DNA from: Deferribacterales bacterium
GTDB taxonomy: Bacteria; Chrysiogenota; Deferribacteres; Deferribacterales; Geovibrionaceae
DNA length: 64,000 bases
Direction: 5' to 3'
NCBI GenBank assembly: GCA_050253335.1
Contig: JBFWJG010000004.1
Coordinates: 8,462 to 72,461, forward strand
This document shows, one piece after another, positions 7,052 to 21,849 of this stretch. The number at the start of each line of letters is the position of its first letter. The first letter of the stretch is position 1. The notes beneath the pieces were generated by a model. It saw only the letters and a program-made list of their open reading frames with translations, had not been told where the DNA came from and made no database searches. A program made the position numbers and the translations under genes.

Positions 7052-8008
7052 TTATTTATCCCGCCTGTATTTAATTCCTTTTTCATACATTTCCTTCCAG
7101 ACCCTCAGCCCGTCAACCTCCACGGGATCCTTTTCCTTTGCTATATGTTCATTTATGAGTGCGGCCGCTTTGTCAAACTCATCATTTTCAGCATAGGCCG
7201 CCGCCAGCCTTTCGGCATTTGTGTTATCCGGCCGGAGAGAGTATGCCCTTCGTCCGTAGAGCACTGCCTTTGCCCCGTCTCTGAAATACGGGTCAGGATG
7301 GGTGGAGAGGATCCACGCCGCCTGAGAAAAGGCCTTTTCCATGGAGCTGTCCAGGATTGCCGCTGTTTCGAGATCTTTGATGCCGTCTCCGGTTTTTGAA
7401 ACAGCAAAAAGCACCTGCGCCCGCTGGAAATAGCTTCCGGCATTTTTGGGTTCAAGCTCTATGGCGCGGGTCACGTCCACTATGGCCTGTTCGGGGCTCC
7501 CCGCTTTCAGGTATGCCTTTGCCCTGCCGAGGTAGGCCTCCGCGCTTTCGCCCTGCGCCTCTATCCCTCTGTTCAGATAGAAGAACGCCTGTTTTGTGTT
7601 CCCCAGTTCGGCATATGCGAGGCCGATCAGGGTATTTGCGCGGGCATAGGTTCTGGGCTTCTGAGTCAGCGCCTCATCCAGTTCCATTACCGCGTCATTG
7701 TATTTTCCGAGTAAGAAAAGGATTTCCCCTCTTCTGTAGTGCAGGTAAGCGGTGTTTTTATTTCTGCCCAGTGCTCTTGTGTATTCATAAAAGGCCCTGT
7801 CGTATTCCTTCATTGCGAAATAGGCATCCCCGAGAAGGGTTCTGTTTTCGCCTGAGTCATGTTCCTGAACGGCTTTTTCAAGATATCCGGCCGCCAGCGG
7901 CGCGTTTCCCGATTCAAGGGCGCTCAGGCCGCTTTTCCGCAGTTCAACGGCGGCTTTGGGCGCGCACGCCGCAAGGGCTGCTGCTGTGATCAATATATAA
8001 AGTCTCAT
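7052..8008 (-). CDS. TPR-repeat lipoprotein
   Basis: Start at 8008 (GGAG RBS) gives signal peptide with LAAC lipobox followed by multiple TPR repeats. Confidence 0.85.
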   Translation of the reverse strand: MRLYILITAAALAACAPKAAVELRKSGLSALESGNAPLAAGYLEKAVQEHDSGENRTLLGDAYFAMKEYDRAFYEYTRALGRNKNTAYLHYRRGEILFLLGKYNDAVMELDEALTQKPRTYARANTLIGLAYAELGNTKQAFFYLNRGIEAQGESAEAYLGRAKAYLKAGSPEQAIVDVTRAIELEPKNAGSYFQRAQVLFAVSKTGDGIKDLETAAILDSSMEKAFSQAAWILSTHPDPYFRDGAKAVLYGRRAYSLRPDNTNAERLAAAYAENDEFDKAAALINEHIAKEKDPVEVDGLRVWKEMYEKGIKYRRDK

Positions 8009-8096
8009 GATATCTCCATAGTCGGCTTCATTAATAATATTACTCCCTGAACACAAATAACAGAAGTTTTTTATGAAAAGAGCCACAGTTATTTTT

Positions 8097-8133
8097 TGTA
8101 ATTATTACACACTATAACAAGTTTTATTTGTTA
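8097..8133. promoter_or_regulatory. Two palindromic operator-like sites in the divergent promoter region of the phage-derived operon
   Basis: TGTAAT-T-ATTACA (8097-8109) and TAACAA-N7-TTGTTA (8115-8133) in an AT-rich intergenic region. Confidence 0.45.
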
Positions 8134-8170
8134 AATGTTTATATTCCCTCATCGGCTAAGGAGGAATGTG

Positions 8171-8854
8171 ATGATTCTTGAAATGGCTAAAACAGGCAGA
8201 TACGGCGAGGTAACGCTTACCGAGGCGGATCTGGAGCAGATGGAGAAAAGCTTCGGCGGAAAAGTGCCCGTAACTGTGGGGCACGAGATAGCCGGAAATA
8301 TGCCCGCTGCCGGATGGGTTAAAAACATCTGGGCGGAGAAGGGCGTTCTCATGGGCGAGGCGGAGCTGGGGGACTGGCTCACGGAAGCCTACGAAAAAGG
8401 GGAATACCGCAACTGGTCAATAGGCGCGAAGAGGGACGCGGACGGCAGGCTTTACCTGCACCACCTTGCGTTTCTGGGAGCTCTGCCGCCTAAGATACGC
8501 GGCCTTGAGGTTGTGGAGATGGGCGACAGCGGCGATTTCCTGACCTTTTCAGGATCCATACCCGCTTATTTCAGCGAGCTTGAAGCGCTCCGCAGGGAAA
8601 AGAGGGAGAAAAAACTCAGTGAACTCAGATCCGCATGCGAAGGGAAAATTCCCGCCGCCAAGCTGGAGCTTGTGATGGAGTTTGCTGAAAACCTTGAGGG
8701 TACGGTGAATTTCGCAGACGGAAACGAGGCGGACGCTGTGAGCGTGCTGAAGGATGTTTTTTCGTCCCTGCCGGAGCCTGTGAAGGCGGGAAAAATGAAC
8801 CTGCCCGAAAGGAGCGTTTCGGCGGAGCAGAAGGGAATCTTCGGGAAAATTTAA
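8171..8854 (+). CDS. Phage prohead protease/scaffold (Mu-like I type)
   Basis: VPVTVGH..PAAGWV, YRNWS, LHHLAFLGALPP.I.GL motifs of transposable-phage head peptidases; charged C-terminal scaffold-like region; AAGGAGG RBS before GTG 8168/ATG 8171. Confidence 0.82.
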   Translation: MILEMAKTGRYGEVTLTEADLEQMEKSFGGKVPVTVGHEIAGNMPAAGWVKNIWAEKGVLMGEAELGDWLTEAYEKGEYRNWSIGAKRDADGRLYLHHLAFLGALPPKIRGLEVVEMGDSGDFLTFSGSIPAYFSELEALRREKREKKLSELRSACEGKIPAAKLELVMEFAENLEGTVNFADGNEADAVSVLKDVFSSLPEPVKAGKMNLPERSVSAEQKGIFGKI

Positions 8855-8866
8855 GGAGGGGAGAAG

Positions 8867-9229
8867 ATGGCAAAGTATGACGGAGTAATCGACAGGCGCG
8901 ACATGGGTTCCGCCGGAATAATCGACGGCCGCCACCCTGCGGTGGTGAAGGTAATGCCTTTTAAGGCGGACAACGGAAAAATCGAAGCGGGGGAAATAGT
9001 CGTCCTCAATGCAGACGGGAAGGCGGACTTTTATGACGCACAGGACGGAGGCACGCTCTCCGTTCCGGTGGGTGTCAGCATCTTCACCGTTGATACGGCA
9101 AAAGACAGCCTCGGGAGTGTTCTTGTGCACGGAACGGTCATCAGAAGCGCCCTGAAAAACGGCGGAGCCAAGGCTGAGTCTGCCGCTGTGAAGGCGTTGG
9201 AAACAAATACGCAGATCTGGGCGTTTTAA
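8867..9229 (+). CDS. Head decoration protein (lambda gpD-like)
   Basis: 120 aa between protease and capsid; G.I.AG.IV..PVGV..VLVHG.V pattern. Confidence 0.7.
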   Translation: MAKYDGVIDRRDMGSAGIIDGRHPAVVKVMPFKADNGKIEAGEIVVLNADGKADFYDAQDGGTLSVPVGVSIFTVDTAKDSLGSVLVHGTVIRSALKNGGAKAESAAVKALETNTQIWAF

Positions 9230-9242
9230 GGAGGTTTGAAAC

Positions 9243-10229
9243 ATGCTTCAGTTTGACATAAACAGCTTTTTTTCAAGGGATTCTCTCATAAGAACCCTCA
9301 CGGACATGCCGGAGCTTAAATCTCCCGTGCTTGATTCGGTTTACAGAACGGAGAAGAGGAGGAACCACCCTCTTCCCACGGTTGCGGTGAGCGACCTCCA
9401 GCAGCCCATAACAAATATAGCCATCAGCAGAAGAGGCTCCGCGCCCACGCCCCTTTACGGCGACACAGGGCAGATAACCCACATAGAACCCCAGCCGTTC
9501 AGACCTTCGGAGAGGCTTAACGGCGTTGAGGTGAATAACTTCAAGCTCCTTGACAGGACAGGGGTTCAGCTTCTCATCAATAACAAGATAGACAGACTCA
9601 GAAGAGTTGTGCGCGCCTCCACGGAGGCACTGGCGGCTCAGAGCCTCACAGGGAAAATAAGCTACCCGATGATTATGGACGGCGGCTACGGCACATACGA
9701 AGTGGACTTCGGCTCCACTCTTTCCTACTCGCCTTCGGTTCTCTGGGATGATTCTCAGGTTGCGATAGACGACATCCTCGAAACCCTCATCGAAATGGAA
9801 GCGGACATTCAGGAAACAAGCAGATACGGCGAAGGCGTTAAGTTCTGGGCAGGCAAAAAAGCGTTTATGGCGCTTTCCAAACTTGTTCAGGCTTTTGAGG
9901 GGAAAAGCGTGATCGCTTCCATGGATGAAAAATCGATCCTCGTAGGCGGCTACAGAATCGAACTGATGAACTCCGCCTACATCGACCCCGCAACGGGCAG
10001 CCCCGTTAAGGTGGTGGAGGATGGAAAGCTTCTCGCTGTTGCGGCGGACGCGCCCTTCGAACTCATTTACGCTGTGCTGGACGATCTGGACAGCAACCTT
10101 GTCTCCATGCCCTTTTTCGTGAAGCCCGTGGAGGACAAACGCACATCCTCAATCGAGCTTGTGGCGGAGAGCAAACCCCTCCCCGTGCCTTACACAAGGG
10201 CGATCAACTGGGCAACGGTAACGGAATAG
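9243..10229 (+). CDS. Major capsid protein (lambda gpE-like, HK97 fold)
   Basis: 328 aa; RRGS.P, TEALAAQSLTGKI.YP, YEVDFG, W, C-terminal ESKPLPVP typical of Phage_cap_E proteins; TAAGGAGG RBS. Confidence 0.85.
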   Translation: MLQFDINSFFSRDSLIRTLTDMPELKSPVLDSVYRTEKRRNHPLPTVAVSDLQQPITNIAISRRGSAPTPLYGDTGQITHIEPQPFRPSERLNGVEVNNFKLLDRTGVQLLINNKIDRLRRVVRASTEALAAQSLTGKISYPMIMDGGYGTYEVDFGSTLSYSPSVLWDDSQVAIDDILETLIEMEADIQETSRYGEGVKFWAGKKAFMALSKLVQAFEGKSVIASMDEKSILVGGYRIELMNSAYIDPATGSPVKVVEDGKLLAVAADAPFELIYAVLDDLDSNLVSMPFFVKPVEDKRTSSIELVAESKPLPVPYTRAINWATVTE

Positions 10230-10233
10230 CGCC

Positions 10234-10578
10234 ATGGAACTTACGGTTGACGAACTGAAACAGCATATTCAGCCGGAGGACTTTGACGCTATAACAGGCG
10301 GGGATGACGCAGTGGCCGAAACCTTTCTGGAAAACGGAAGGGAAAGGGTTAAGGGGATAATCGCGGGCTACGGTGTGGATTTTGACGAATCCGACTCCGT
10401 GATACGCCTCGCCGTGGTGAAGGCCGCGCTGAGCGAGCTTTACTCGTATTCGGCGGACTGGGTGACGGCGGAGCATTACCGTGATGAGGCTGTTCTTGTG
10501 CTCAGGCCTCTTTCTCCCGCTGTTTATCCGGACGCGGCTTCGGTTAACGGGGCAGAAAGCTGGAAAGGTTTTGACTGA
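10234..10578 (+). CDS. Head-tail connector (Mu gp36/DUF1320-like)
   Basis: 114 aa helical protein right after capsid; LTVDEL..I..E.F..IT, A..ELY, Y.DEA...L pattern. Confidence 0.65.
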   Translation: MELTVDELKQHIQPEDFDAITGGDDAVAETFLENGRERVKGIIAGYGVDFDESDSVIRLAVVKAALSELYSYSADWVTAEHYRDEAVLVLRPLSPAVYPDAASVNGAESWKGFD

Positions 10579-10600
10579 TAAAGGAAAAGGTTGAGGAACT

Positions 10601-10981
10601 ATGGTTTATGAAACGGCACGGATGATAGCGGAGCTTCTGGAGGCTGAAGGAATATTCAGGCATGTGTTTGTTCACGGCGGGCCGCCCGATAAGGCGGCGG
10701 AGGAAATCCTGAGGGAACCGGGGGCCGTCGTGGTTTACACGGGGGAGGAGGGGCAGCCTTCGGGAAGCGCGTTCAGGCGTGAACCGGTCTTCTCCGTGGT
10801 TCTGAAGACCTCCGCCCAGAGCAGGGGGGAGATTCCTGTGAAGACCGCTGGCGATGCCCTTGACGGGGTTTTCAGCGCTTTGCGGGGGCTCTCCCCTGCT
10901 TCATGGCGGGTTTCAGGCCTCTCCTCCGGCAGGGGAGGCAATTTCTACAGAATAGACCTCAGACTGAGACTAAAGGAATAA
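10601..10981 (+). CDS. Putative tail terminator/completion protein (Mu gp37-like)
   Basis: Size, position after connector, P.AVVVY.G and C-terminal Y.I.L.L strand pattern. Confidence 0.45.
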   Translation: MVYETARMIAELLEAEGIFRHVFVHGGPPDKAAEEILREPGAVVVYTGEEGQPSGSAFRREPVFSVVLKTSAQSRGEIPVKTAGDALDGVFSALRGLSPASWRVSGLSSGRGGNFYRIDLRLRLKE

Positions 10982-10985
10982 GAAA

Positions 10986-11642
10986 ATGGCGATTGTTCTG
11001 AAAAATACCAATTTCGCGGTGAGCACTCTGGCATATGAGCTGGATCAGGCGGGTCAGCCCGCCCAGCTCACACTCACCGATTACACGGACTTTTCGCAGG
11101 CAGGCAGATTCAAAGTGGTGATTTGGGGCGGAGGTTTTGCTTCTCCTCTGGATGATCCTCAGCGGGAGATTGCTGAACTTGTTCCCGCGGGTATTCCCGG
11201 ATTTGAGAACACATTTAACTGCTACGGCGGCAAAGAGGGGACGGAAAAGAGAAACTGGCCTGCGGGCAGCCGTATAGCTCATGTGATTACCGCAGGAAAA
11301 CTGAACGAGCTTGAGGCTGAGATAGGGCTCAAGGCGGATGCGGCGGATACTGAGCGCATCGGCACGGTGAGCGTTAAATCCGCCGACTGCTCAATGACCG
11401 GAGCGGAAAGAGCCGTGATGGTGAATGCCGGAGTATCTGACATAAGAATAACCCTGCCCTCTCCGGCCGAAAATGCCGGACGTGTTTTTATAATAAAGCG
11501 CATTGACGCGGGCGTTGCGGCGGTGCGGGTGTCCGCCGGTTCGGGTGAGCTGATAGACACACAGAGTGCTGATATTCTGCTCTCCGCCCAGTGGGACAGG
11601 GTGCAGATAATCTCAGACGGCACAGACTGGTACACGGTTTAG
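10986..11642 (+). CDS. Phage fibre/appendage-like protein
   Basis: N-terminal N.A.STLA..L.. R.WPAGSRI...ITAG.L anchoring module and C-terminal ITLP.P....GR..IIKRID..L..QW..V.IISDG..WY domain seen in virion fibres. Confidence 0.55.
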   Translation: MAIVLKNTNFAVSTLAYELDQAGQPAQLTLTDYTDFSQAGRFKVVIWGGGFASPLDDPQREIAELVPAGIPGFENTFNCYGGKEGTEKRNWPAGSRIAHVITAGKLNELEAEIGLKADAADTERIGTVSVKSADCSMTGAERAVMVNAGVSDIRITLPSPAENAGRVFIIKRIDAGVAAVRVSAGSGELIDTQSADILLSAQWDRVQIISDGTDWYTV

Positions 11643-11651
11643 GGGGCGGGG

Positions 11652-12026
11652 ATGGTTTATCTGTGCGGCATACACCTTGAGGGGATGGTTTGGACAAATG
11701 AGTTTTCGGCGGGGCTTCCCGCCGCCGTTTCTGTTCCGTGCGCGGACGGAACATCGGCAGTATTCACTGAGACCGCAGGGAGCTTCGGCATAGATCTCGA
11801 ATCCGCGGAGGATGACGGATGGCTCAGTCCGGCTGAGGCTCAGCAGCTCAAGGAAGCGGCATCAGACGCGGGCGCTGTTTATCTGTTTTCTCACAGAGGC
11901 AGGGAGTTCAGAGTCCGCTTCCGCCATGAGGACGCGCCCGCTCTGGAACTGAGGCCCGTCCGCCCCGCAGACGGCTGCGGGGAGAATGACTGCTTTTACG
12001 GAAAAATAAGGCTGAAAACAGTTTAG
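11652..12026 (+). CDS. Putative distal-tail/tail-tip protein
   Basis: 124 aa, W.NEF..., GWL....L, V.FRH...P....PV motif like small siphophage tail-tip proteins; position. Confidence 0.5.
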   Translation: MVYLCGIHLEGMVWTNEFSAGLPAAVSVPCADGTSAVFTETAGSFGIDLESAEDDGWLSPAEAQQLKEAASDAGAVYLFSHRGREFRVRFRHEDAPALELRPVRPADGCGENDCFYGKIRLKTV

Positions 12027-12034
12027 GGGGAAAT

Positions 12035-12994
12035 ATGCAGACCGGAGACATAAAGTTCTACCGCTCAAAAACCGTCACGGACACGGCGGAAAACGGCGGG
12101 CATATGGATATATCAAGGGAGATTGTGAGCGGGGTGAAGTTTAATCTTTTTCCAAGAGTGACCGCCTTTGAGCGCACGAACGGAAAAACACGCCTGCGCA
12201 AGGCCTACATCGCCAACAGGGCGGCAGGGGCGGAACCCGCTTTTGACGCGGCTGTGGCGCTCACAGTGCCCAGCACCGGAGGGGACAGGTTTTACATAAA
12301 GACAGCCCAGAACCATGCGGAGACCGAAGGGGAGCTCACCGCAGAAGGCTGGACAGGCGGCGGAAGGCTGTATGCGGACATCACAGCGGGGGATGCTTCC
12401 GTTCAGGTACTTTTCGAGCACAGCGACTACGCGGTGCCCGCGGGCGCGCTTCTCATGGTCAAGGCGGATTCGGGAAATATGTTCACCGCAAGGATTACAG
12501 GGGCTGACTGGACAGGGAATGTGGCTCTGATAGGGCTTGCCTCTCAGGCTCCGGATAACTTTGCCGCATCGGAAACCCACGCGGGAATATGCGTTGAGCT
12601 TGGGAATCTGGAAGCAAAGGCGGAGAACATAAGCGCAGTTTCAGCAGGCGGAACCTTCGCCTCCGAGGGGATATCGGTGTCCAACTGCGGCGCGGCTGAG
12701 GATGAATGGACTATAACCTTTGTTTCATCATCGGCGTTTAATGTGGCTGGAGCACAGGCAGGGAGTCTGCCTTCCGGAAGCATAACGGCAAATTATCAGC
12801 CTATGAACGCGGCTTCGGGCGATTTTTATTTTTCAATAGCTCACCAGAGCTGGGGCGGTTCGTGGCAGGCGGGGGACAGGCTCACCTTCAGCACCCGCGC
12901 CTCGGCGAAGGGTTTCTGGCTGAAAGAGATTGTGCCCGCCGGAACGGAACGTGAGGCGGATAACTTCATCCGCCTTGACTGGATAACGGACTAG
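12035..12994 (+). CDS. Conserved phage tail-tip structural protein
   Basis: N-terminal DIKFY.S..VTD...NGG.M...IVSGV..NLFP.V...ER..G..RLRK and WGGSW.AGD.L.F.T motifs recalled from siphophage tail assembly proteins. Confidence 0.6.
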   Translation: MQTGDIKFYRSKTVTDTAENGGHMDISREIVSGVKFNLFPRVTAFERTNGKTRLRKAYIANRAAGAEPAFDAAVALTVPSTGGDRFYIKTAQNHAETEGELTAEGWTGGGRLYADITAGDASVQVLFEHSDYAVPAGALLMVKADSGNMFTARITGADWTGNVALIGLASQAPDNFAASETHAGICVELGNLEAKAENISAVSAGGTFASEGISVSNCGAAEDEWTITFVSSSAFNVAGAQAGSLPSGSITANYQPMNAASGDFYFSIAHQSWGGSWQAGDRLTFSTRASAKGFWLKEIVPAGTEREADNFIRLDWITD

Positions 12995-12997
12995 TCC

Positions 12998-14668
12998 ATG
13001 TACAGGACTGCGGGAGCCTTTGTTCCCGGAACAGACGGCTTTTCATCATCCGGCCTGAGCTTAAACGGTGCGCTTTATCTGCGGTTTCCCACAGGATGCG
13101 GGTCATCGTCAGAGCTGAAAGGGGCTTTGTCCTCCGGCGGTTTGTCCGAGCTGGCACAGCCTGCCGGACTGGACGATTGCTGTTATGTAACAAGTTCATA
13201 CAGCGCAGAGCTGAAAGGCGGGATCATCTTTTCCGGCGCAGTGACTGACGCTGCTGAGGGAAACCTGAAAGCAGAAAGCGCTGTTTCACTGGGAGGCTCT
13301 CTGGAAGCTTGTTTGAGTATTTCCGGCGGGCTTTCTGGACAGATTAAAGGCGCAAACACGATAGGCGACTCTGCCCTTTGCGGCATGGTGTCCCTGAGGG
13401 GTGAGATCTCCTTAAACTCCCTTTGCGGTTCGCTTTTTCTCAAATCATCAGTAGATGATGACATCGGCATAATTCAGTGTTCGTTCCGCTTTCTGCTGAA
13501 CGGAAAGGATCTTACAGGCAAACTCGTAAGTGCCGTGATCGGTTTTTACGGCAAAGACCCTTTCGCATCTTTCAGCGCCGTTGTCACGGAACCTGCGGAA
13601 AAGGGATCAGGAGCGGAATTTGTCATAGAGGGCTCTTCATACTTTTTTGTGATCGAAAAAATAAAGAGAGCCGGACACACGTTGAAAATCAGCGGGCGCG
13701 CCGCCAAGGTTATGGATGAACCGCCCTATGGGGGCAGGAGATCGGTTTTCATGGCTGATACATCCGCATCTGCTCTGGCAGGGAGCGCTGTCTGGAGTGT
13801 GCCGGATTTCTCTGTTCCTCTGGTAAGGGGCAGTTTCTCAGAATCCGAGCTTCTGCGGGCGCTTGCTGATGAATGCGGAGCATCGGTGCGCATAGGCGCG
13901 GACGGACTTACCCGCGTTGTCAATCCGTATTCGGCGGAAAACAGCCTTAGTCCCGGCACATTTTTTGAGGCGGTGAGAACCTGCGAACAGCCGAAATACG
14001 GCGGAATCAGGGTGGTGTCGGGCTTATCTGCTGATCCTGTGATAGAGCCTGATGCGAAGAAGACAGCCCGCGGGAATTTCGTCACCGTATCGGTTTATGC
14101 CAACGGGGATGTGAAGATAAGTACCGATGCCGCCTTTTTTAAGCCGGACGGGCTGAGGGTTATCGAAAAGGAAGAGAAGATCCGTTTTTCAGACGGTGCG
14201 GGCAAGGCTTCCTATCCTGTTCTCAGGCTCCTGAGCGGAGCGGACGCGGCGGAAGGGCGCAGTGTTTATGTGCGTGAGGGGGGCAGTTTCGTCAGGAATG
14301 TCAGGTATGAAACCATCCGGCGTGACTGCCTGCTTTACGAAGAGGTAGAAAAAGATGCGGTTCTGCGTGCCGAAGCGGTGAAAACCGTTTTTTGCGCAGG
14401 TTCCGGCACGGCGGTAAAGGAGTTCCGGCAGAAGCTGACAGGTGATCCGCTTGCTGCGGCAGCAAGGGCGCAGAATCTTAAACGCGGTCTCTGCGGCGGG
14501 GTTTATCTGGAAGTTGCACACCTTTTCAGTCCGGAGGCGGCTTCGGGGGATGCGCTTCTGATGCGTACATCCGCAGGCGAAGGGTACTGTGTTTCCTCAT
14601 CAGTTGAGATAACATCCGCCCCGCTGAAAATAATCCAGAAAACAAAGCTTTACCTGAGGGAGGAATAA
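12998..14668 (+). CDS. Phage tail/baseplate hub-like protein
   Basis: 556 aa; Gly/Ser-rich N-terminus, central ISGR and ELLRALA...GA....ADG..RV hub-like segment; C-terminal domain shared with the next two genes. Confidence 0.5.
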   Translation: MYRTAGAFVPGTDGFSSSGLSLNGALYLRFPTGCGSSSELKGALSSGGLSELAQPAGLDDCCYVTSSYSAELKGGIIFSGAVTDAAEGNLKAESAVSLGGSLEACLSISGGLSGQIKGANTIGDSALCGMVSLRGEISLNSLCGSLFLKSSVDDDIGIIQCSFRFLLNGKDLTGKLVSAVIGFYGKDPFASFSAVVTEPAEKGSGAEFVIEGSSYFFVIEKIKRAGHTLKISGRAAKVMDEPPYGGRRSVFMADTSASALAGSAVWSVPDFSVPLVRGSFSESELLRALADECGASVRIGADGLTRVVNPYSAENSLSPGTFFEAVRTCEQPKYGGIRVVSGLSADPVIEPDAKKTARGNFVTVSVYANGDVKISTDAAFFKPDGLRVIEKEEKIRFSDGAGKASYPVLRLLSGADAAEGRSVYVREGGSFVRNVRYETIRRDCLLYEEVEKDAVLRAEAVKTVFCAGSGTAVKEFRQKLTGDPLAAAARAQNLKRGLCGGVYLEVAHLFSPEAASGDALLMRTSAGEGYCVSSSVEITSAPLKIIQKTKLYLREE

Positions 14669-15172
14669 ATGGCTGAGGTAACAGTTAGTTTTGTAACGCC
14701 CGCAAAAAGCGGGGAGAAGACGGTAATAGAGCTGGATGAAGATATGAATCTCGATTCCTCAGGCAGTGCGAAGAAATTTTTCCGCTACGGCGAAACGGCA
14801 TATTTCAGGGCTTACGCCCCTTTGCCCGCTTCCCTGAGGGCTGTCTCATCCGACGGAAGCATCACTGAACACGGACTGGGCACTGCGACAATAAGCGGCG
14901 AGTTCATTCCCTTCACCGAATCAGCCGAGGCAGGGGCGAAATATCCCGTAAGGGAAATTGTCTCCTCCGTGTGGCTTGGGAGATCCCTCGGCAATGTAAA
15001 GAAAAGCGGCGCTTACTCTGTTTCATGCGAAATTGAGCCGGATGCCGCAGGTGAAAGCGGAGTGGGGCTTCTTGAACTTACATATTCATCAGGCTTTAAA
15101 AGGTTCGGCATAACACTGCCGAAGAAAAGCAGGCCTGAGTGCCCCGTGCTTATTTACGTTTTTCAGGAATAG
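14669..15172 (+). CDS. Phage tail-associated protein (paralogue of next gene)
   Basis: Starts immediately after upstream TAA; GETAYFRAY and EFIPF......KYPV motifs. Confidence 0.55.
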   Translation: MAEVTVSFVTPAKSGEKTVIELDEDMNLDSSGSAKKFFRYGETAYFRAYAPLPASLRAVSSDGSITEHGLGTATISGEFIPFTESAEAGAKYPVREIVSSVWLGRSLGNVKKSGAYSVSCEIEPDAAGESGVGLLELTYSSGFKRFGITLPKKSRPECPVLIYVFQE

Positions 15173-15175
15173 CTT

Positions 15176-15892
15176 ATGGGCTCATTCATTGTCGGCTTCG
15201 GCGCGGAAAAGAAGGAAGGGGAGCTCCTCCTGACAGAAGATCACGAACGGAGCGGAAACAAAAGCCTCTACTCAGCCGGAGAAAAGTCATATGTGCGTAT
15301 ATATCCCGCCGGACTGAATGCGGAGATAACTGTCTCAGGCGGTTCGTGGAGATATTCGGCATACGGTCTCAGCGAAATGCACACGGAGCATATCCCTTTT
15401 GCGGATCAGACCGAAGGCAGGCTGAAATATCCTGTGGTGCGGGTGCTGAATGTTTCCCGCGCGGCGGACGGCTCCTCCCCCTTTGTGGGCGGGCGTTCAG
15501 TGAGGTTCAGAGAAAACAGGCTGGATTCTGTTTCCGTTGAATATGAAACGTCCTATGATCTCATCGAAATCACAGGGTTTTCCGCACGGTACGTGATCCT
15601 GAAAGTCTCCTGCGCCGCTGGAACTGCTTACCTTGAGCTGGACTACACTGGGGAAGAGACTGATCTCTCCTCCCGCATGGTGATACTCACGGCGAGGGAT
15701 GCGGCTTCAAGGGAGATCATCCCCCATGCGCAGGTTTTCATGAACGGTACTTTCAGGGGCGTGACAGACGGCGGAGGAATGCTGAATCTGGGCAGGCTGA
15801 AGAAGGGGCAGTACAGCCTCCTTGTGCGCAAGGACGGCTATCTGGACACTGATAAGGACAACCTCAAAAATGACAGTTTCAGGATCGAATAA
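15176..15892 (+). CDS. Phage tail-associated protein with C-terminal PEGA/carboxypeptidase-regulatory-like domain
   Basis: GEKSYVRIY, EHIPF......KYPV; C-terminal A.VF.NG...GVTD..G.L....L..G.Y.L.V.K.GY. Confidence 0.6.
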   Translation: MGSFIVGFGAEKKEGELLLTEDHERSGNKSLYSAGEKSYVRIYPAGLNAEITVSGGSWRYSAYGLSEMHTEHIPFADQTEGRLKYPVVRVLNVSRAADGSSPFVGGRSVRFRENRLDSVSVEYETSYDLIEITGFSARYVILKVSCAAGTAYLELDYTGEETDLSSRMVILTARDAASREIIPHAQVFMNGTFRGVTDGGGMLNLGRLKKGQYSLLVRKDGYLDTDKDNLKNDSFRIE

Positions 15893-16767
15893 TGGAACTG
15901 AACCTATATCTCAGCAGAGAAAACTGGCGGCCGGAGGGGCTCTGCACCGTAAAAGGGCGGAGCGCGGGGATTGAGTTTGACGATACGGACGGGATTCCGG
16001 GGCTGGTTTTGCCTCTGTTTATGGATGTGTACATGGATCAGGACGGCACAGCCCATGCGGACGCGATGACTGTTCTCCTCTCTGACGGAACGGAGAGCGA
16101 GGAGTTTCTCCTGCATAATCCGCCATGCGCCAAGTCGCCCCTGCGCAAGGGGGCACTGAGCTATTCCGCGGAGGATGGGGAGCTTGTTTTCAGCTTTCCC
16201 CGACTGGCGTTCAGCGGGTTCGGCGGTTATGTGATACGGACGGGCGGCGGCTCTGTCAGCTATCTTACCCCGGGGAGAATAGGGGAGATAATCCGTACTG
16301 TGCCGGAGTATACGGGCTCAAGCCCCGAAAATTTCAGACTGATGTTCAGCGATACGTCAGTTGCTCCGGGGGAAACCGTGTCGGTGATGTTCACCCTTGC
16401 CGGAAGTGCTGAGGAGTTCATGTACCGTTCGTCCGTTTTTGAAACATCAGTGTGGACATCGGCAGTGATTGCCGGATGCGGTCTTTACCGTGACGGAGCC
16501 TTTTATGAAGGCGGGGAAGGAGCAGAGTTTGAGCCGGAAAGGTTTGCCCATTCTGATTTCCGCTGGGCTGTGGAGTTCAGGGGACAGGCTTATGCCCTGA
16601 AAGCGGCGGACTTCACCCGCTTCTTAATCGGCGAGCGGGCGGCAGTTGTTAAAAACGGACTGGACGGAAATGCGCTGACCACGGGCAAGGCTTCTCAGGC
16701 TTCCGCAAGGGATACCCTTGATGAGGATGACATCATAGTTCCGTTCAAATTTTACGGAGGGGCGTGA
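15892..16767 (+). CDS. Phage hypothetical (tail-tip region)
   Basis: TAATG overlap with upstream stop; 291 aa; no firm motif. Confidence 0.5.
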   Translation: MELNLYLSRENWRPEGLCTVKGRSAGIEFDDTDGIPGLVLPLFMDVYMDQDGTAHADAMTVLLSDGTESEEFLLHNPPCAKSPLRKGALSYSAEDGELVFSFPRLAFSGFGGYVIRTGGGSVSYLTPGRIGEIIRTVPEYTGSSPENFRLMFSDTSVAPGETVSVMFTLAGSAEEFMYRSSVFETSVWTSAVIAGCGLYRDGAFYEGGEGAEFEPERFAHSDFRWAVEFRGQAYALKAADFTRFLIGERAAVVKNGLDGNALTTGKASQASARDTLDEDDIIVPFKFYGGA

Positions 16768-17780
16768 TGGAAAAATATCCTCTGCGGAACATAGGTGAGG
16801 CTGTCACAGGCACAGAGTTCAGGAAAGGGGTGATCCTCTCCGTTAATGCGGAGGCGGATAAGGCTGATGTGGATGCGGACTCGGCAGTTTATCAGGGCGT
16901 GCCTCTGTTTTACCGATGCAAGGGGGACGAGGAGGCGCATCCGGACGGCTCGGTTAAGGGCGCCGGCGGGGTGTTCACAGCCGGAGATGAGGTCATAGTC
17001 TGCTTTATCGGCGGTGTGCCTCTGGTTGTGGGCTTCGCAGGCGGGGCAAGACCCTGTTTCACATACAGGGCGGCGTATCACGCTGATGGCGGATGGTACA
17101 TAGCGGGTGACGGGGAGATAGTTCCCGATGAATTTGTCACGGAGGCTGAGTTTGAAGAGCGCTACATAATAGCTGAACCGCTCCCCGACAGCGGCGGCTA
17201 CGGAATCGAATCCGAAAAAATTCAGCAGGATGCGTGTCTGAGCATAACCTCGCACAAATTCAGCCTGAACGGCGGGCTAATTTCGGAGGAGAGCGAATAT
17301 TACGATTTCTGCGTGTTGGACACGTGGGGAGGCTGGTTCACTCTTTTCAGCCAGTCCGCATACGCCGGATTCAGCGCTTGTTTTTATGAACATACCGCTC
17401 AGGCAGTCATAGACGGGGACAGATGGACAGTGGAGCGCTCATACCGTTTCGGTTTCGGTTCGGAATATGACGAAACCGCCCGTTTGCGGGAGGACTGGTT
17501 TGTTTATCCGCTATACAGCGGGGAGAAGATACGCTCATTCGGCGGATTTTACGGCGGGAGGAACAGCGGCGGCGAATTTCTGCTGGCTTCATGCGTAACC
17601 GGAACAGAGACGGAGGACAGCGGATTTGCGGTGTATCTCTTCAACAGGGAGGGTTTGAAAAAGCACATCTTCCCTTGTTCGGCGGGGAATGCGGATCTGG
17701 GCTTGGGTTTTTCGGCGGCGGAAGCGGTTCTGATTAAAGTAAAAAACGGGGGAGGAAATAATGATATGGAAGAATCTTAA
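16764..17780 (+). CDS. Phage protein with N-terminal OB-fold spike-like domain
   Basis: G.I.SVN...DKADV....VPLFY.C....F..GDEVIV.F....P.VVGF pattern resembling gp5/gpV N-domain; aromatic-rich C-terminus. Confidence 0.5.
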   Translation: MMEKYPLRNIGEAVTGTEFRKGVILSVNAEADKADVDADSAVYQGVPLFYRCKGDEEAHPDGSVKGAGGVFTAGDEVIVCFIGGVPLVVGFAGGARPCFTYRAAYHADGGWYIAGDGEIVPDEFVTEAEFEERYIIAEPLPDSGGYGIESEKIQQDACLSITSHKFSLNGGLISEESEYYDFCVLDTWGGWFTLFSQSAYAGFSACFYEHTAQAVIDGDRWTVERSYRFGFGSEYDETARLREDWFVYPLYSGEKIRSFGGFYGGRNSGGEFLLASCVTGTETEDSGFAVYLFNREGLKKHIFPCSAGNADLGLGFSAAEAVLIKVKNGGGNNDMEES

Positions 17781-18189
17781 ATATTTTACCGAGAAGGAGA
17801 AATGGGGAAATGCAGAGAAGATGAACCCTGCGCTGCTCCTGCTCCTTGACAGGCTCAGAGAAAAGGTGGGCAGGCCTTTTGTAATCCATTGCGGCTATGA
17901 GGAAGGGGGGCACGCCTCCGGCAGCAGACACTACAGAGGGGATGCCGTGGATTTTCATATCGAAGGGATGAGGTTTCCGGAGGCCGCGGACAGCCTTCTC
18001 AGAGCACTGCACGAGACTGAACTTCTGGGGCAGGTAAGCGCCGCTTATGTGGGTCTCGGAATTTATCCCGACTGGAACACGCCGGGCTTTCATCTGGATA
18101 TAAGGGGCTATTCCGCCCGCTGGGGAAGAATAGGCGGGGAATATGTGAGTTTTGAAAAAGCGTATAAGCACGCAGGAGGGGTGAAATGA
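17761..18189 (+). CDS. Endolysin, peptidase M15A family
   Basis: M.P.LL..LD.LR...G.P..I.CGY, S.H..G.A.DF and GLGIY....FHLD zinc-peptidase motifs. Confidence 0.85.
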   Translation: MIWKNLKYFTEKEKWGNAEKMNPALLLLLDRLREKVGRPFVIHCGYEEGGHASGSRHYRGDAVDFHIEGMRFPEAADSLLRALHETELLGQVSAAYVGLGIYPDWNTPGFHLDIRGYSARWGRIGGEYVSFEKAYKHAGGVK

Positions 18190-18395
18190 TTTCTATACTG
18201 GTTAAGATGTTCTCGGGCGCGATGCTCGGTGTGGCGAAGGCTTTTCTTACGGAAAAAATAATTACTCTGGTTGTGGTGGAGGTGCTCAAAGAGCTCGCCG
18301 CTTCAACAAAAACGACCATAGACGACCGCATAGTGAGTGAGGTTGCCGCTTCTCTTGGAATGGTGGATCTCTCCGAAATCAAAAAGAAGCTTTAA
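18186..18395 (+). CDS. Putative holin
   Basis: 69 aa, hydrophobic N-half, T.TTIDD.IV motif, basic C-terminus, ATGA overlap with endolysin. Confidence 0.55.
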   Translation: MISILVKMFSGAMLGVAKAFLTEKIITLVVVEVLKELAASTKTTIDDRIVSEVAASLGMVDLSEIKKKL

Positions 18396-18407
18396 GCGGG
18401 GGACAGC

Positions 18408-19589
18408 ATGGGAAAGAGAAGAACATCGGCTGAGATACTGAACAGCGTTTTTGAATCGGCTGACCAAAGCCTTAAAGCAAAATACAAAACAGAGGACGAA
18501 GTGCTGAACCTTGTTTTTGACCGGCAGTCCGGCAGGCTTAAAGTCGATCTGGAAGGGGGCGGTGGAAGCAAGCCTTACTCCAATCCCCTTGAAACATACG
18601 CCTCAACAGATCCTGCGGGGGTATTGGGCGGCGGACTGCTGTTCGGGAATCTGAGCGGCTCCAAGAAATGGATTGGCGGAGCTCTGGCGCAGAACGGGAA
18701 GGTTTACTGCGCGCCTAATGATGCCTCCCAGATACTTGAAATAGACCCTGTGACCCGTGAAACATCTCTCTTCGGCTCATTCAGCGGTTCCAATAAATGG
18801 ATTGGCGGCGCTCTTGCGCCAAATGGAAAGATATACTGCGCGCCTTATAATTCGCCTCAGGTTCTGGAGATTGACCCCGTGGCAAAGACGGGAACTCTCT
18901 TCGGAGCCCTGAGCGGTTCGTCCAAGTGGTACGGAGCCGTGCTTGCTCCCAACGGGAAAATATACTGTGCGCCTTATAATTCGACTCAGGTTCTGGAAAT
19001 TGATCCGGCGACACAGGGCACAAGGCTTTTCGGCAGTATAAACGGAGCAAGCAAATATGTCGGCGGTGTCCTCGCCCCTGACGGGAAGATATATTTTATC
19101 CCGCTTTCAGCAGGGCAGATTATGGTTCTTGACCCGACGGCAGACTCGGTGGAGTTCTTCGGCACACTGCCTGATGATGTGCTGTATAAATGGGCATCAG
19201 GCGCTCTTGCGCCAAACGGAAAGATATACTGCGCGCCGTATCAGGAAACACGGGTGCTTGAGATAGACCCTCTGACTCGTGAGACTGTTCTCTTCGGAGA
19301 ACTGAGTGCAGGGAGCGGGAAGTGGAGCGGCGGTGCTCTCGCGCCGGACGGCAGAATATATTTTGCTCCGCTTAATTCCTCTCAGATTCTCTCTGTTGAC
19401 CCTTCGTCAAGGGAAGCGAGCTTGTTCGGGAATGTCGGCGGTTCGGTGAATATGTTTGCGGGTGCGGTTGTTTCCCCGTCCGGCGGGGTAATTTTTGTTC
19501 CGAATTCATCGGCAAAGGTGCTTGAGATTCGTCAGGGCGCTCACGGCAGTCAGTGGTGGGCGCTGAACGCATACACCAATAAGTTTTAA
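18408..19589 (+). CDS. Seven-bladed beta-propeller protein (possible receptor-binding/adhesin)
   Basis: Seven ~42-aa repeats KW.GGALAPNGKIYCAPYNS.QVLEIDP; short N-terminal duplicated E.LN.VF motif. Confidence 0.8.
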   Translation: MGKRRTSAEILNSVFESADQSLKAKYKTEDEVLNLVFDRQSGRLKVDLEGGGGSKPYSNPLETYASTDPAGVLGGGLLFGNLSGSKKWIGGALAQNGKVYCAPNDASQILEIDPVTRETSLFGSFSGSNKWIGGALAPNGKIYCAPYNSPQVLEIDPVAKTGTLFGALSGSSKWYGAVLAPNGKIYCAPYNSTQVLEIDPATQGTRLFGSINGASKYVGGVLAPDGKIYFIPLSAGQIMVLDPTADSVEFFGTLPDDVLYKWASGALAPNGKIYCAPYQETRVLEIDPLTRETVLFGELSAGSGKWSGGALAPDGRIYFAPLNSSQILSVDPSSREASLFGNVGGSVNMFAGAVVSPSGGVIFVPNSSAKVLEIRQGAHGSQWWALNAYTNKF

Positions 19590-19597
19590 AGGGGCGG

Positions 19598-19876
19598 ATG
19601 ATGGAAGTTTTTGAAAAATGGCTTGAGAACCTTGCGGCCTCAATGACGGATGAAGAGATAAACGGGGCAATTGCGGCGCATCTGACGGCATATGACGATG
19701 ACGGGAATATAGTTTATGAGCCTTCGGCAGAGGATATTGAGGCAGTGCGGTTTGAGCATTATGCCGCGCTCCGCAGGGGTTCATACGGCTCATGGCAGGA
19801 ACAGCTTGATAAACAGTATGCCGGAACATGGGAAAGCCACGTGGCGGCAGTGAAGGCGAGGTTCGGGAAAATGTAA
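19598..19876 (+). CDS. Small phage hypothetical protein (fibre chaperone-like)
   Basis: 92 aa; LRR..Y.SW.EQLD.....W..HV.AVKARF motif typical of small proteins following fibre genes. Confidence 0.55.
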   Translation: MMEVFEKWLENLAASMTDEEINGAIAAHLTAYDDDGNIVYEPSAEDIEAVRFEHYAALRRGSYGSWQEQLDKQYAGTWESHVAAVKARFGKM

Positions 19877-19935
19877 AAAGGTCGCAAAATTGGTTGAACG
19901 CTGTAGTAAACTCCCGTTCTCGTCTCTCTGTAAAT

Positions 19936-19972
19936 AAAAAAGGCCTCTGATAAAAAATCAGAGGCCTTTTTT
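19936..19972. terminator. Bidirectional Rho-independent terminator
   Basis: AAAAAAGGCCTCTGAT-AAAAA-ATCAGAGGCCTTTTTT perfect hairpin between the phage operon and the convergent tRNA. Confidence 0.9.
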
Positions 19973-19975
19973 AAG

Positions 19976-20060
19976 TGCCGGGGGGGGGACTCGAACCCCC
20001 ACAGGATTAACTCCCACAGGATCCTTAGTCCTGCGTGTCTACCAATTCCACCACCTCGGC
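19976..20060 (-). tRNA. tRNA-Leu (anticodon AAG)
   Basis: Reverse complement GCCGAGG TG GTGGAATTGGTAGACAC G CAGGA-CTAAGGA-TCCTG, long variable arm, GGGGG-TTCGAGT-CCCCC, CCCCGGC A; no encoded CCA; A5-C68 mismatch. Confidence 0.93.
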
Positions 20061-20211: not shown

Positions 20212-21849
20212 TTATTTTTTATTCATTTTCGGAGCGAGGTGTCTGCTGTATTCCTTGTCCTCGTGCATTATATGGTTTTTCAGCCAGTCCTGCAGAAAGC
20301 TCATCAGGTTGAAGCCTATAACCTCTTTCCCTTTCTTGTAATTGTCAAGGAACTGCCCGACAGCTTCTTTCAGCTTGTCGTGGGATTTTATGTGGTTTGC
20401 GCTCTGGGGAAAGCCGTATTTCTGAAATGCTTTTTCCTCTGAGTCGAAGTGGTACACAGTGTATTCAACAAGCTCGTTCAGGGTGCGCTCAAGCATCTGT
20501 TTGCCTTTGTCCTGCCTGATAGCGTTGTAGAGGTTATTAATGATGCTCACAAGCTTCTTGTGCTGCTCGTCGAACTGGTGAACCCCTGTTTCAAGGCTTT
20601 TTGACCATTTGATGAACTCGTCCCCGCCGGATGTTTTGAACCCTGACACGCTCCCTGCAAGGCTTTTGGTTACATCCAGAAGGTTGCCGCCCGCTATGAC
20701 CGATTCGTTGGCCATGTGAAGGATGTTTGCCGACATATCAGAGATTTCCACCGTACTGCTGGAAACTTCTCCGAGGGCGAGGTTTTCCTCCTCCATGGCG
20801 CGCACTATGCCGTTAAGCTGGCTTGTGAGCTCGTTTATGCTTTCCGATATTATATTGATTGAGTTAACCGATTCTCCGGAGAACTCTATTCCTTTCTCAA
20901 CATTTTCCACACCTTCCTGAACCTTGCCGAAGACATCGTTAATCTTGTACTGAAGCTCCCTGATAACAGCGCCTATCTGCTCTGTGGAGTCTGTTGTTTT
21001 TCCGGCAAGCTTGCGCACTTCGTCCGCTACAACGGCAAAGCCTCTGCCGTGTTCGCCCGCTCTTGCCGCCTCGATTGCGGCGTTAAGGGCGAGAAGGTTG
21101 GTCTGATCCGCTATTTCCTTGATGGAAACGACAATATTCTCAATCTTTTCAGACTGCTTGAGAAATTCCTCCACCACCGCGGAGATAGAAGAGATGCTGG
21201 AGGATATGTTCTCCATGCTTTTGCGGTTGCTGTTTATAACGCTGATGCCGGACTTAACTCTCGCACTGCAGTCCTCAACAAGCTCGAATGAGACCTTGCA
21301 TGTGGAGAGAACGCTCTGCCCTGTTGAGGTGAGCTCTTCCGCCGCGCTTGAAACATTATTTACGTTGTCATTGATTATATTTATCTGCCCGTTCACTTCG
21401 GAGTTTACTGATGAGAGGTTGTCTGCGAGGCTTCTTATGTTGTTTGCCGCATGGTAAAACTCTGAAATTGTGTTATCGAGTTTATCCAGAAGCTCATTGA
21501 GCCCGCCGCCCAGCTCCTTCATCTCCCCCTGACATTCAGAAAGAGCGACTCTCTTTGTGAAATCCCCGCCGAGAGCGGCTTTCAGCGTGCCGGCGAATTC
21601 CCTCACACCGCTGCTTACTCTTCTGAACGCAGTAAAGGGTATTACAAATGCGAGAACAATAGAGGTGAATATGCATATAAGTGAAATGGTGAGGCCGGTG
21701 GAGGCGAGCTCCATTGCCCTTTCCGTTCCCTCTCCGCCGGGCATTATCTGCCTGAAGAAAAAATAGTTTTTGATGCCTACGAATCCTGCCGCTATGCCGG
21801 GTACGGCGGCAGCGATAATGAAAATGACGTGTTTTAATGAAAGGCGCAT
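20212..21849 (-). CDS. Methyl-accepting chemotaxis protein with C-terminal bacteriohemerythrin domain
   Basis: Two TM helices, [41 protein letters not shown]; Hr ligands in DEQHKKL, HFDSEE, HIKSH, HIMHED. Confidence 0.95.

Follow-up and report, generated by a model that had tools for sequence, protein, structure and literature searches.

Phage-derived head, tail-tip and packaging genes at two conserved loci of the Geovibrionaceae: a candidate tube-less, gene transfer agent-like particle

Introduction

Gene transfer agents (GTAs) are characterised in PMC8987985 as domesticated defective phages that package host DNA. Here we describe a candidate for such a system in Deferribacterota, consisting of a cluster of 17 phage-type genes (g01 to g17) at positions 8171-19876 of a 64,000-nucleotide stretch of DNA from a Deferribacterales bacterium of the family Geovibrionaceae (assembly GCA_050253335.1, contig JBFWJG010000004.1, positions 8,462 to 72,461; hereafter the window) and of a second locus with packaging genes elsewhere in the same genome (G000). 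To our knowledge, GTAs have evolved independently in no more than a handful of known cases. The genome of RcGTA is distributed over multiple loci, its head is of the HK97 type, and it has a tail tube and a tape measure; RcGTA is said to depend on the competence machinery of the recipient. VSH-1/BhGTA of Brachyspira is encoded by a compact head-tail-lysis cluster of similar size between host genes, in which packaging genes are not obvious, and VSH-1 particles have a long non-contractile tail. Full-text searches on Deferribacter and Denitrovibrio GTAs, Geovibrio prophages and Mu-like domesticated GTAs (a coverage that excludes subscription journals) returned neither a GTA from Deferribacterota nor the element described here.

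In its genes and their inheritance, the system resembles RcGTA. Phage-derived structural and lysis genes reside in the chromosome, are inherited vertically over a host clade and kept under purifying selection, come without replication, integration or transposition genes of their own, and occupy separate loci that seem to be co-regulated. The components themselves differ from those of RcGTA: a lambda-E type capsid protein (PF03864) is combined with a Mu-type portal (PF06074) and a decoration protein, tube and tape measure are both absent in 15/16 genomes, and the hosts belong to a different phylum. The sole link to RcGTA in sequence or fold is the generic tube fold of g07, whose model matches a chain of the RcGTA virion (6tba) with a Z score of 7.0, and the genes do not belong to the RcGTA-type family. 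The gene families thus point to an origin separate from that of RcGTA, by way of a siphovirus ancestor with a Mu-type head.

Conservation and selection of the head and tail-tip cluster

We searched 41 genomes: G000, 15 relatives from the same family and 25 representatives of seven sister families in the Deferribacterales. The family is represented by four genera (Geovibrio, Limisalsivibrio, Seleniivibrio and Denitrovibrio), and several of its genomes are metagenome bins. The major capsid gene was found in all 16 family genomes and in none of the 25 genomes of the sister families. Its product is 94-97% identical to that of G000 within the same genus (n=3), 73% in genus 2 (n=1), 65-67% in genus 3 (n=7) and 62-64% in genus 4 (n=4). 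A divergently oriented TPR gene adjoins the protease gene g01 in 15/15 relatives. By tblastn, g01-g04, g08 and g10-g12 were detected at 15/15 loci and g06 and g09 at 14/15; g05, g07 and g13 are too divergent for tblastn at several loci, yet alignable positional orthologues exist. The 16 family capsids form one clade (100/100) that is far from two real Mu-like prophage capsids of relatives, and the minimum number of changes suffices to explain the distribution of genus labels on the capsid tree.

Within Geovibrio, the ratio of nonsynonymous to synonymous substitution rates (dN/dS) of all 17 genes was 0.038-0.260 in the comparison with G002 and 0.035-0.202 in that with G003, giving an overall range of 0.03-0.26. 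The flanking host genes gave 0.014-0.12 at a dS comparable to that of the cluster. Although dS between congeners exceeds 1, the reading frames are still open. As a control, a Mu-like prophage baseplate gene on contig C16 of G000 was patchy, being present in 5/15 family genomes and 5/25 others. Patchiness, a variable site, pseudogenes and relaxed selection, which would mark a cryptic prophage, were not found for the cluster, apart from exceptions in 3/16 genomes that are discussed below. Because the cluster is present in 16/16 family genomes at a constant site beside the TPR gene, with dN/dS of 0.03-0.26, it is not a decaying prophage. Neither megablast nor tblastn searches with the cluster and the capsid returned a match among 50,697 phage records.

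The tRNA-Leu gene at the right border was considered as an attachment site and rejected, since it adjoins the cluster in only 2/15 relatives (3/16 genomes with G000).

A separate locus carries TerS, TerL and portal

When the 17 proteins of the cluster were scanned against Pfam and PHROG, no integrase, transposase, terminase, portal, tube or tape measure was found. A Terminase_6N search of the G000 genome led to contig C15, where genes for a small terminase subunit (TerS), a large terminase subunit (TerL) and a Mu-type portal follow one another (Table 1). The GpA terminase, Phage_portal and Phage_portal_2 families had no match in this genome; TerL and portal belong to other families. A regular expression for Walker A did not reveal the classic motif in TerL, from which nothing can be concluded, given the strong Pfam and PHROG domain matches. 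TerL was found in 15/15 other family genomes and 0/25 sister-family genomes, and portal likewise in 15/15, with a single distant match (25% identity) among the 25 genomes outside. An open reading frame (ORF) resembling TerS could be aligned upstream of TerL in 11/11 loci examined, covering all four genera. The dN/dS values of TerS, TerL and portal are 0.04-0.065. One in-frame stop interrupts the TerL match in three genomes (G002, G003 and G010); in G003 it lies upstream of the real start, within the overlap with TerS, and, to judge by its coordinates, that of G002 seems to lie likewise.

The two loci are not contiguous in the family. TerL is ~30 kb away from the capsid gene in three Geovibrio genomes and 38 kb away in genus 2; in genus 4 the two genes are divergently oriented and ~12 kb apart, and genus 3 has them on different contigs. 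On the left of the cluster, the contig of the window extends for just 16.6 kb, so that C15 probably adjoins it. Synteny of the genes around TerL is limited to genera 1 and 2. However they are arranged, no integrase, transposase or replication genes were found by Pfam and PHROG scans at the cluster or in the TerS-TerL-portal neighbourhood. The TerL locus of Geovibrio is flanked by a gene with a double helix-turn-helix (HTH) and an S24 (CI/LexA-like) domain, a DUF2062 gene and a ParA-like gene, and in Denitrovibrio these three lie next to the far end of the head-tail operon. This shared flank suggests a single ancestral insertion that was later split by rearrangements. Two large genes upstream of TerL (608 and 691 aa) were considered as partners and discarded, as they belong to a histidine-kinase-like family with >20 genomic paralogues, for which adjacency is uninformative.

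A complete phage relative and the missing tail genes

A widened capsid profile retrieved 63 viral contigs, and those of sufficient length carry TerL, portal, protease, decoration and capsid genes in an uninterrupted series. The best of these relatives is L072 (IMGVR_UViG_3300028030_000027), a 42.9-kb contig on which all particle genes lie in one contiguous block. Its proteins are 47% (portal), 48% (protease), 42% (capsid), 35% (g04), 37% (g07) and 43% (g08) identical to those of the host set. The block begins with a DNA-binding TerS-like gene, TerL and portal, which the family carries at the second locus, followed by a Mu-F-like minor head protein of 429 aa that the family lacks. The protease, decoration protein and capsid genes, corresponding to g01, g02 and g03, come next, then a 426-aa gene missing from the family, the g04 homologue, a missing Neck1/tail completion gene (194 aa) and the 125-aa homologue of g05. 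After these stand a major tail protein of 249 aa (phrog_807, 8.9e-43), which is missing from the family except in G004, a tail assembly chaperone of 103 aa and a tape measure of 902 aa, both missing, and finally the homologues of g07 and g08. L072 and the host set thus have homologous head and tail-tip genes in the same order, whereas the Mu-F-like protein, the 426-aa gene, Neck1, the major tail protein, the chaperone and the tape measure of L072 are all absent from G000. In L044, a contig of 64 kb, a tape measure of 1894 aa is followed by homologues of g07 and g08, two more genes and then homologues of g10 and g11.

Only 1/41 genomes searched has a tube homologue. G004, the sole genome of genus 2, carries a 232-aa tube gene exactly between g05 and g06 (phrog_807, 1.7e-19), whose product is 28% identical to the tube protein of L072 over its full length (E 2e-28). 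The gaps from g05 to g06 and from g06 to g07 in G000 are 4-9 nt, and no tube, chaperone or tape measure gene stands between the neck and tip genes as in a complete siphovirus tail. Searches of the G000 genome, a 142-contig draft rated 99.9% complete, with the tape measure family PF10145, the sheath family PF04984, the Mu-F family PF04233 and the tube protein of L072 found none of them. The family set shares the Mu-type portal and the gpI-type protease with Mu-like phages (see Table 1 for the matches); transposase A/B and Mu-F are absent from both loci, and the Mu-type transposases that the genome does have lie in other elements, on contigs C1 and C9.

Those two elements of G000, at C1:85.6-93.7 kb and C9:46.4-52.5 kb, each contain a repressor and transposase A/B homologues and no capsid gene; the C1 element also has a protease homologue. 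Contig C16 (34167-41523; locus L045:12565-19924) bears a Mu-like myovirus baseplate and fibre module that runs off the contig end, and homologues of this module sit in complete Mu-like prophages of G006 and G007. The module is an ordinary prophage fragment. Its myovirus-type baseplate genes were rejected as a source of the missing tail, being patchy among relatives and of an ordinary Mu-like prophage type.

These results bear on an earlier interpretation of the window (hereafter the sequence-only reading). It had noted that packaging genes were absent from the cluster, which is correct; in the genome, TerS, TerL and portal are present on contig C15. One of its alternatives, that the cluster is one locus of a split GTA, gains from the discovery of this stand-alone and equally conserved locus. 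The proposed loss of whole modules with the rest intact is borne out by the tube and tape measure missing relative to L072, and the preference for a host-maintained element over random decay by the conserved site in 15/15 relatives, the dN/dS range and a capsid tree that follows the genera. Of the synteny of TPR gene, cluster and tRNA-Leu gene that it had named as a check, the TPR side stood in 15/15 relatives and the tRNA-Leu side in 2/15. None of the 17 genes had a dN/dS near 1, and the closely related complete prophage that would have spoken against domestication was not found in the 50,697 phage records.

A promoter-like motif common to both operons

In genera 3 and 4, TTAAACATAT occurs upstream of both g01 and TerS and is followed 15-16 nt on by a -10-like (G)TAnnAT. 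The pattern TTAAACATAT-N-TAnnAT gave 14 matches in five genomes of two genera, against 3 for the reversed control; it stands before TerS in 5/5 of these genomes and before g01 in 3/5, the other two having variant spellings. The motif of Geovibrio is different, TAACAA-N14-22-[CT]TATATT[TC]C, and has two matches in the G000 genome, one before g01 and one before TerS; as this pattern was derived from the same two sites, only the absence of further matches is informative. This promoter-like motif is a sign that both operons may be under joint control.

Additional copies of TTAAACATAT...TAnnAT were observed in L119 (G008, ~147-260) and L122 (G006, ~128-240), followed by a similar stretch, CCGTCCATGAAGA... 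No clear ORF lies downstream of the extra motif sites inspected in two genera, and the stretch may represent a leader or a small RNA transcribed from this type of promoter.

Three adjacent HTH genes, two of them with S24 peptidase (CI/LexA-like) domains, are located beside the portal locus on C15 (locus L027:6326-8900). Among them, a 269-aa double-HTH-S24 gene is 50-55% identical to the gene at the far end of the Denitrovibrio head-tail operon and is a candidate regulator. CI/LexA-like HTH-S24 genes adjoin one or the other locus in three genera.

Origin and function of the two-locus system

We consider it probable that the two loci encode a domesticated, tube-less, GTA-like particle system, owned by the family, vertically inherited and likely carrying host DNA. 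Purifying selection on TerS, TerL and portal argues that DNA packaging is among the functions under selection. The particle would be unable to propagate itself, because the loci lie 12-38 kb apart or further and lack replication and integration genes. With packaging genes under selection and loci too separate and incomplete for a self-propagating genome, a GTA-like particle is the most economical interpretation.

The following scenario would account for the gene content. The ancestor would have been a siphovirus with a Mu-type head module comprising TerS, TerL, Mu-type portal, Mu-F, gpI-type protease, decoration protein and E-type capsid, which the ancestor of the family acquired in a single event and which became fixed in the chromosome. 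After fixation it would have shed the genes for mobility and replication together with the Mu-F-like gene, one of the neck genes, the chaperone of the tail and the tape measure, and later, in three of the four genera, the tube gene. Rearrangements would have parted TerS-TerL-portal from the operon that runs from the protease to the receptor-binding protein. In present-day cells, both operons would be switched on together in part of the population. Protease, decoration protein, capsid and portal would assemble the head, TerS and TerL would fill it with DNA, and the neck proteins g04 and g05 would close it. A ring of the tube-fold protein g07, the tip proteins g08-g13 and the fibres g06 and g16 could then dock directly on the neck, resulting in a very short tail. 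Lysis of the producer cell would be brought about in Geovibrio by g14 and g15. The cargo would most likely be host DNA, which would make the particle GTA-like.

Several points weigh against a DNA-carrying, GTA-like particle. The tip is of the siphovirus type and, with no tape measure, offers no obvious route for DNA across the inner membrane; delivery may rely on the recipient's own uptake system, or there may be no delivery at all. The absence of tube and tape measure depends on few family and protein queries and on a draft genome, and a divergent gene could have been missed. Structure models cover g07 and g08, that is 2/11 of the dark proteins g04-g13 and g17. Recognisable lysis genes were found in just two of the four genera; in genera 3 and 4, the operon ends with small ORFs that match only PHROGs without an assigned function. 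The GC content of the cluster (54.6%) is 5.7 points above that of the genome (48.9%), which is unexpected for a very old resident. Damage or loss affects 3/16 genomes. In G008, a DDE transposase is inserted between g11 and g12, g11 is shortened and g16 is missing; in G012, g06 is missing and g12 is split in two; and the locus of G001 stops after g15, without g16 and g17, and is followed by cytochrome c3 and MFS genes. Since several genomes are metagenome bins, some of this damage may perhaps reflect assembly errors.

A more far-reaching version of the GTA-like interpretation, which we put forward tentatively as a minority possibility, is that the particle is a tube-less injector. Here a host-reduced siphovirus would place the g07 ring directly on g05, and a capsid filled with host DNA would bear nothing but a tail tip; DNA-transfer particles would thereby gain a new structural class, and GTAs would have arisen independently in Deferribacterota. 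G004, with its tube gene kept and its tape measure gone, would then represent an intermediate stage. Such an injector might also serve as a carrier for the capsid-less mini-Mu elements of G000.

The sequence divergence of the surface-binding parts admits a different function. If the host keeps the defective phage as a PBSX-like particle that is released by lysis and kills or inhibits competitor strains by binding, with packaged DNA being incidental, fast evolution or exchange of these parts would fit strain-level targeting: the C-termini of g16 come from four fold families, g09 is only 20-25% identical between genera, and a lysis pair lies within the operon. We regard this as unlikely, because the known phage-tail-like killers use a sheath and tube or a tape measure and tube, none of which was found here, and because dN/dS of 0.04-0.065 for TerS, TerL and portal speaks for DNA packaging as a selected function. 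The same packaging genes bear on the suggestion that the capsid is free of DNA, or loaded with a cargo protein, and acts as an adhesin carrier or compartment while the terminase locus has an unrelated role. Such a capsid would agree with the lack of any tape measure, tube or Mu-F-like protein among the genes found and with the short portal (371 aa against 415-503 aa in phage relatives). Yet TerS, TerL and portal occur together in 11/11 loci examined and are under purifying selection, the promoter-like motif is common to the terminase and head operons, and a terminase has no known role besides DNA packaging, so that we find a DNA-free capsid quite improbable.

Just as improbable, in our judgement, is a role for the head and tip set as a packaging and transfer vehicle of virion-less Mu-type elements, or as a means of interfering with the assembly of incoming Mu-like phages by competition or poisoning. 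Potential partners are at hand, both in the capsid-less elements with transposase genes on contigs C1 and C9 and in complete Mu-like prophages of related genomes, which share 26-36% identity with the host set in portal, protease and capsid. At this level of identity, however, mixed assembly is doubtful. The mini-element protease is not closely related to g01, G000 has no paralogues of cluster genes beyond the g10/g11 pair and one match to the C-terminal domain of g08 (contig C7), and the occurrence of the cluster in 16/16 genomes contrasts with the patchiness of Mu-like prophage genes. As for an ordinary decaying prophage remnant that looks intact by chance, a GC content above that of the host, a tRNA gene at one border, and an insertion sequence and gene losses in individual genomes might be taken as its traces. 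The odds of this are very remote: the cluster occupies the same site in 16/16 genomes of four genera, dS is >1 between congeners yet the frames are open at dN/dS of 0.03-0.26, the control gene from a true prophage is patchy, the tRNA gene is not a constant neighbour, and the capsid tree gives no hint of recent independent insertions.

For the favoured GTA-like system, the complete phage relative, the genus with a tube gene and the three genera without one form a clear domestication series, from which it can be read what parts of the virion are retained by the host and what parts are given up. Should the particles carry DNA, they would constitute a route of gene exchange among anaerobic bacteria that respire metals, selenium and nitrate, and would indicate that a long-tailed phage is convertible to a short-tailed particle by deletion. 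Named species exist in these genera, so that culture tests may be possible.

Gene content and borders of the cluster

The features of both loci are collected in Table 1.

Table 1. Features of the head and tail-tip cluster (window coordinates) and of the packaging locus in G000
Feature	Position	Strand	Evidence
g01, head maturation protease, Mu gpI-like	8171..8854	+	phrog_976 5.7e-24; 15/15 relatives; 48% identity to L072 protease
g02, head decoration protein, gpD-like	8867..9229	+	phrog_49 1.3e-7; PF02924 0.0044 (below cut-off); 15/15 relatives
g03, major capsid protein, lambda-E type	9243..10229	+	PF03864 7.7e-48; 16/16 family genomes, 62-97% identity; dN/dS 0.026-0.042
g04, putative head-tail adaptor, from position	10234..10578	+	homologues 3' of capsid gene in 9 viral contigs; 15/15 relatives
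g05, tail terminator/tail completion-like neck protein	10601..10981	+	hhalign 96.8% probability, E 2.4e-10, to L072 125-aa ORF directly upstream of major tail gene
g06, fibre-like protein, 218 aa	10986..11642	+	phrog_6427 2.2e-8; 14/15 loci
g07, distal-tail (gpM/Dit-like) protein, tail-tube fold	11652..12026	+	AF2 model, pLDDT 80.8; homologue directly 3' of tape measure in L044 and L072
g08, conserved tail-tip protein	12035..12994	+	AF2 model, pLDDT 80.3; homologue after g07 in L044 and L072
g09, large fast-evolving tail hub-like protein	12998..14668	+	Protein Atlas language-model lead, Sipho_Gp37 and YqbQ clusters, 0.93
g10 and g11, paralogous tail-tip proteins	14669..15892	+	match each other; same-order homologues in L044; both 15/15 loci
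g12 and g13, tail-tip proteins, fold not recognised	15892..17780	+	tblastn: g12 15/15 loci, g13 7/15; remaining g13 are aligned positional orthologues
g14, M15-type peptidoglycan peptidase (endolysin or virion-borne lysin)	17761..18189	+	phrog_894 'endolysin' 1.6e-10; PF08291 1.8e-4 (below cut-off)
g15, small hydrophobic protein, putatively holin-like	18186..18395	+	phrog_402 and phrog_2738, both without assigned function; distribution as g14
g16, receptor-binding protein	18408..19589	+	conserved N-terminal anchor of ~50 residues; exchangeable C-terminus, here beta-propeller, DUF6923 2.5e-10
g17, small protein after receptor-binding gene, possible fibre chaperone	19598..19876	+	phrog_9114, no assigned function; same place in 2 same-genus genomes
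Predicted promoter region, AT-rich, divergent, TPR/g01	8087..8170	+	holds TAACAAG-N-TTTATATTCC; motif pair also 5' of TerS on contig C15
Predicted intrinsic terminator hairpin, two-way, g17/tRNA-Leu	19935..19970	.	GGCCTCTGA...TCAGAGGCC then T-run, read directly from the sequence
tRNA-Leu(aag), host gene at right border	19975..20060	-	not a conserved attachment site
TerS, 135 aa, ORF preceding TerL	contig C15		phrog_1206 6.9e-10 (small terminase families)
TerL, ~465 aa	contig C15		Terminase_6N and 6C; phrog_38 1e-125
Portal, Mu type, 371 aa, after TerL	contig C15		PF06074 2.9e-88; phrog_113 5.9e-81

Much of what the sequence-only reading had described at the cluster was reproduced. The 17 co-directional ORFs are tightly spaced on the + strand, with intergenic distances of -20 to +22 nt and stop/start overlaps in four gene pairs. 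The strong ribosome-binding sites are present as well, with TAAGGAGG upstream of g02 and g03 and AAGGAGG six bases before the ATG of g01 at 8171. This AAGGAGG and the resulting length of 227 aa, the same as in the orthologues, make 8171, where that reading also placed the start, most likely preferable to the longest-ORF start at 8135. The AT-rich region at the left corresponds to an 84-nt spacer between g01 and the divergent TPR gene (7052-8086, -), and the terminator at the right to a GC stem and T-run; a consensus-based terminator scan did not list this hairpin at ~19935-19970. Its protease, decoration, capsid and M15 peptidase assignments agree with the family matches in Table 1, and the flanks are indeed host genes: Lon, Hsp20, a nucleotidyltransferase, Memo, a radical-SAM enzyme and TPR on the left, and a chemoreceptor, a glycosyltransferase, FtsZ, FtsA and FtsQ on the right. 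Its impression of a host-like base composition was mistaken, given the GC difference described above (the remaining window has 50.3%).

Among the head and neck proteins, g01 has a short C-terminal tail that may act as a scaffold. No family match in Pfam or PHROG was obtained for g04, and when 42 orthologues of g04-g13 were compared with Pfam at E 0.05, the sole result was a weak SGTA_dimer match for g04. For g05, further leads are one orthologue named DUF3168 in UniRef and a weak match to the tail-terminator family PF23840 (0.009). A complex prediction for g05 and g07 scored 0.00 and gives no verdict on a contact between neck and tip. In two other genera, g06 is ~400 aa long and placed after g08, and one orthologue matches phrog_8469 'tail fiber' (0.0016).

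The best VIA-align matches of the g07 model are nearly all tube, tube-initiator, Dit or Hcp proteins; besides the RcGTA chain mentioned above, they include a baseplate chain of phage Milano (Z 8.5) and lambda gpM (Z 7.4, 99/109 residues aligned). The g08 model has a beta-barrel domain (residues 72-188) that resembles the tail tip of phage Chi (Z 10.2), the baseplate of JBD30 (Z 9.4), T5 Dit (Z 8.3) and lambda gpJ (Z 7.0), and it matches two unnamed viral proteins over its full length (TM 0.71-0.74). Its second domain (model residues 192-289) is similar to domains of the flagellar junction proteins FlgL/FlgK (Z 7.7-8.7) and also to a flagellum chain of Geovibrio thiophilus, 9au6_A (Z 6.3). This likeness of the modelled domain to flagellar proteins probably reflects a common beta domain.

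Profiles of g08, g09, g12 and g13 found nothing below E 0.004 among PDB sequences, g12 and g13 had no match in Pfam, PHROG or PDB sequences, and Protein Atlas scores of 0.80-0.83 for g13 provided no usable lead. Within the genus, g09 is 52-84% identical, its dN/dS being 0.20-0.26. The C-terminus of g11 is CarboxypepD_reg-like. The lysis pair g14 and g15 is confined to genera 1 and 2 (4/15 loci). The N-terminus of g16 is 47-65% identical between genera, while its C-terminus changes with the genus: a beta-propeller in G000, Ig_Rha78A in G004, a ConA-like lectin (Laminin_G_3) in genus 3 and Beta_helix in genus 4. A constant N-terminus with a genus-specific C-terminus is the usual pattern of receptor-binding proteins.

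Two observations concern the neighbouring genes. The chemoreceptor on the right flank (20212-21849, -) is a methyl-accepting chemotaxis protein with a C-terminal hemerythrin domain. On the other side of the cluster, genera 3 and 4 (L015, L017, L019, L022 and L024) have a subtilase gene (Peptidase_S8, 631-726 aa) beside the TPR gene, ~0.3-2.5 kb upstream. The small ORF that precedes it has an HTH_3 match in the scanned genus-4 copy (L022) and none in the genus-3 copy (L015). In Geovibrio, the place of the subtilase beside the TPR gene is occupied by the radical-SAM gene.

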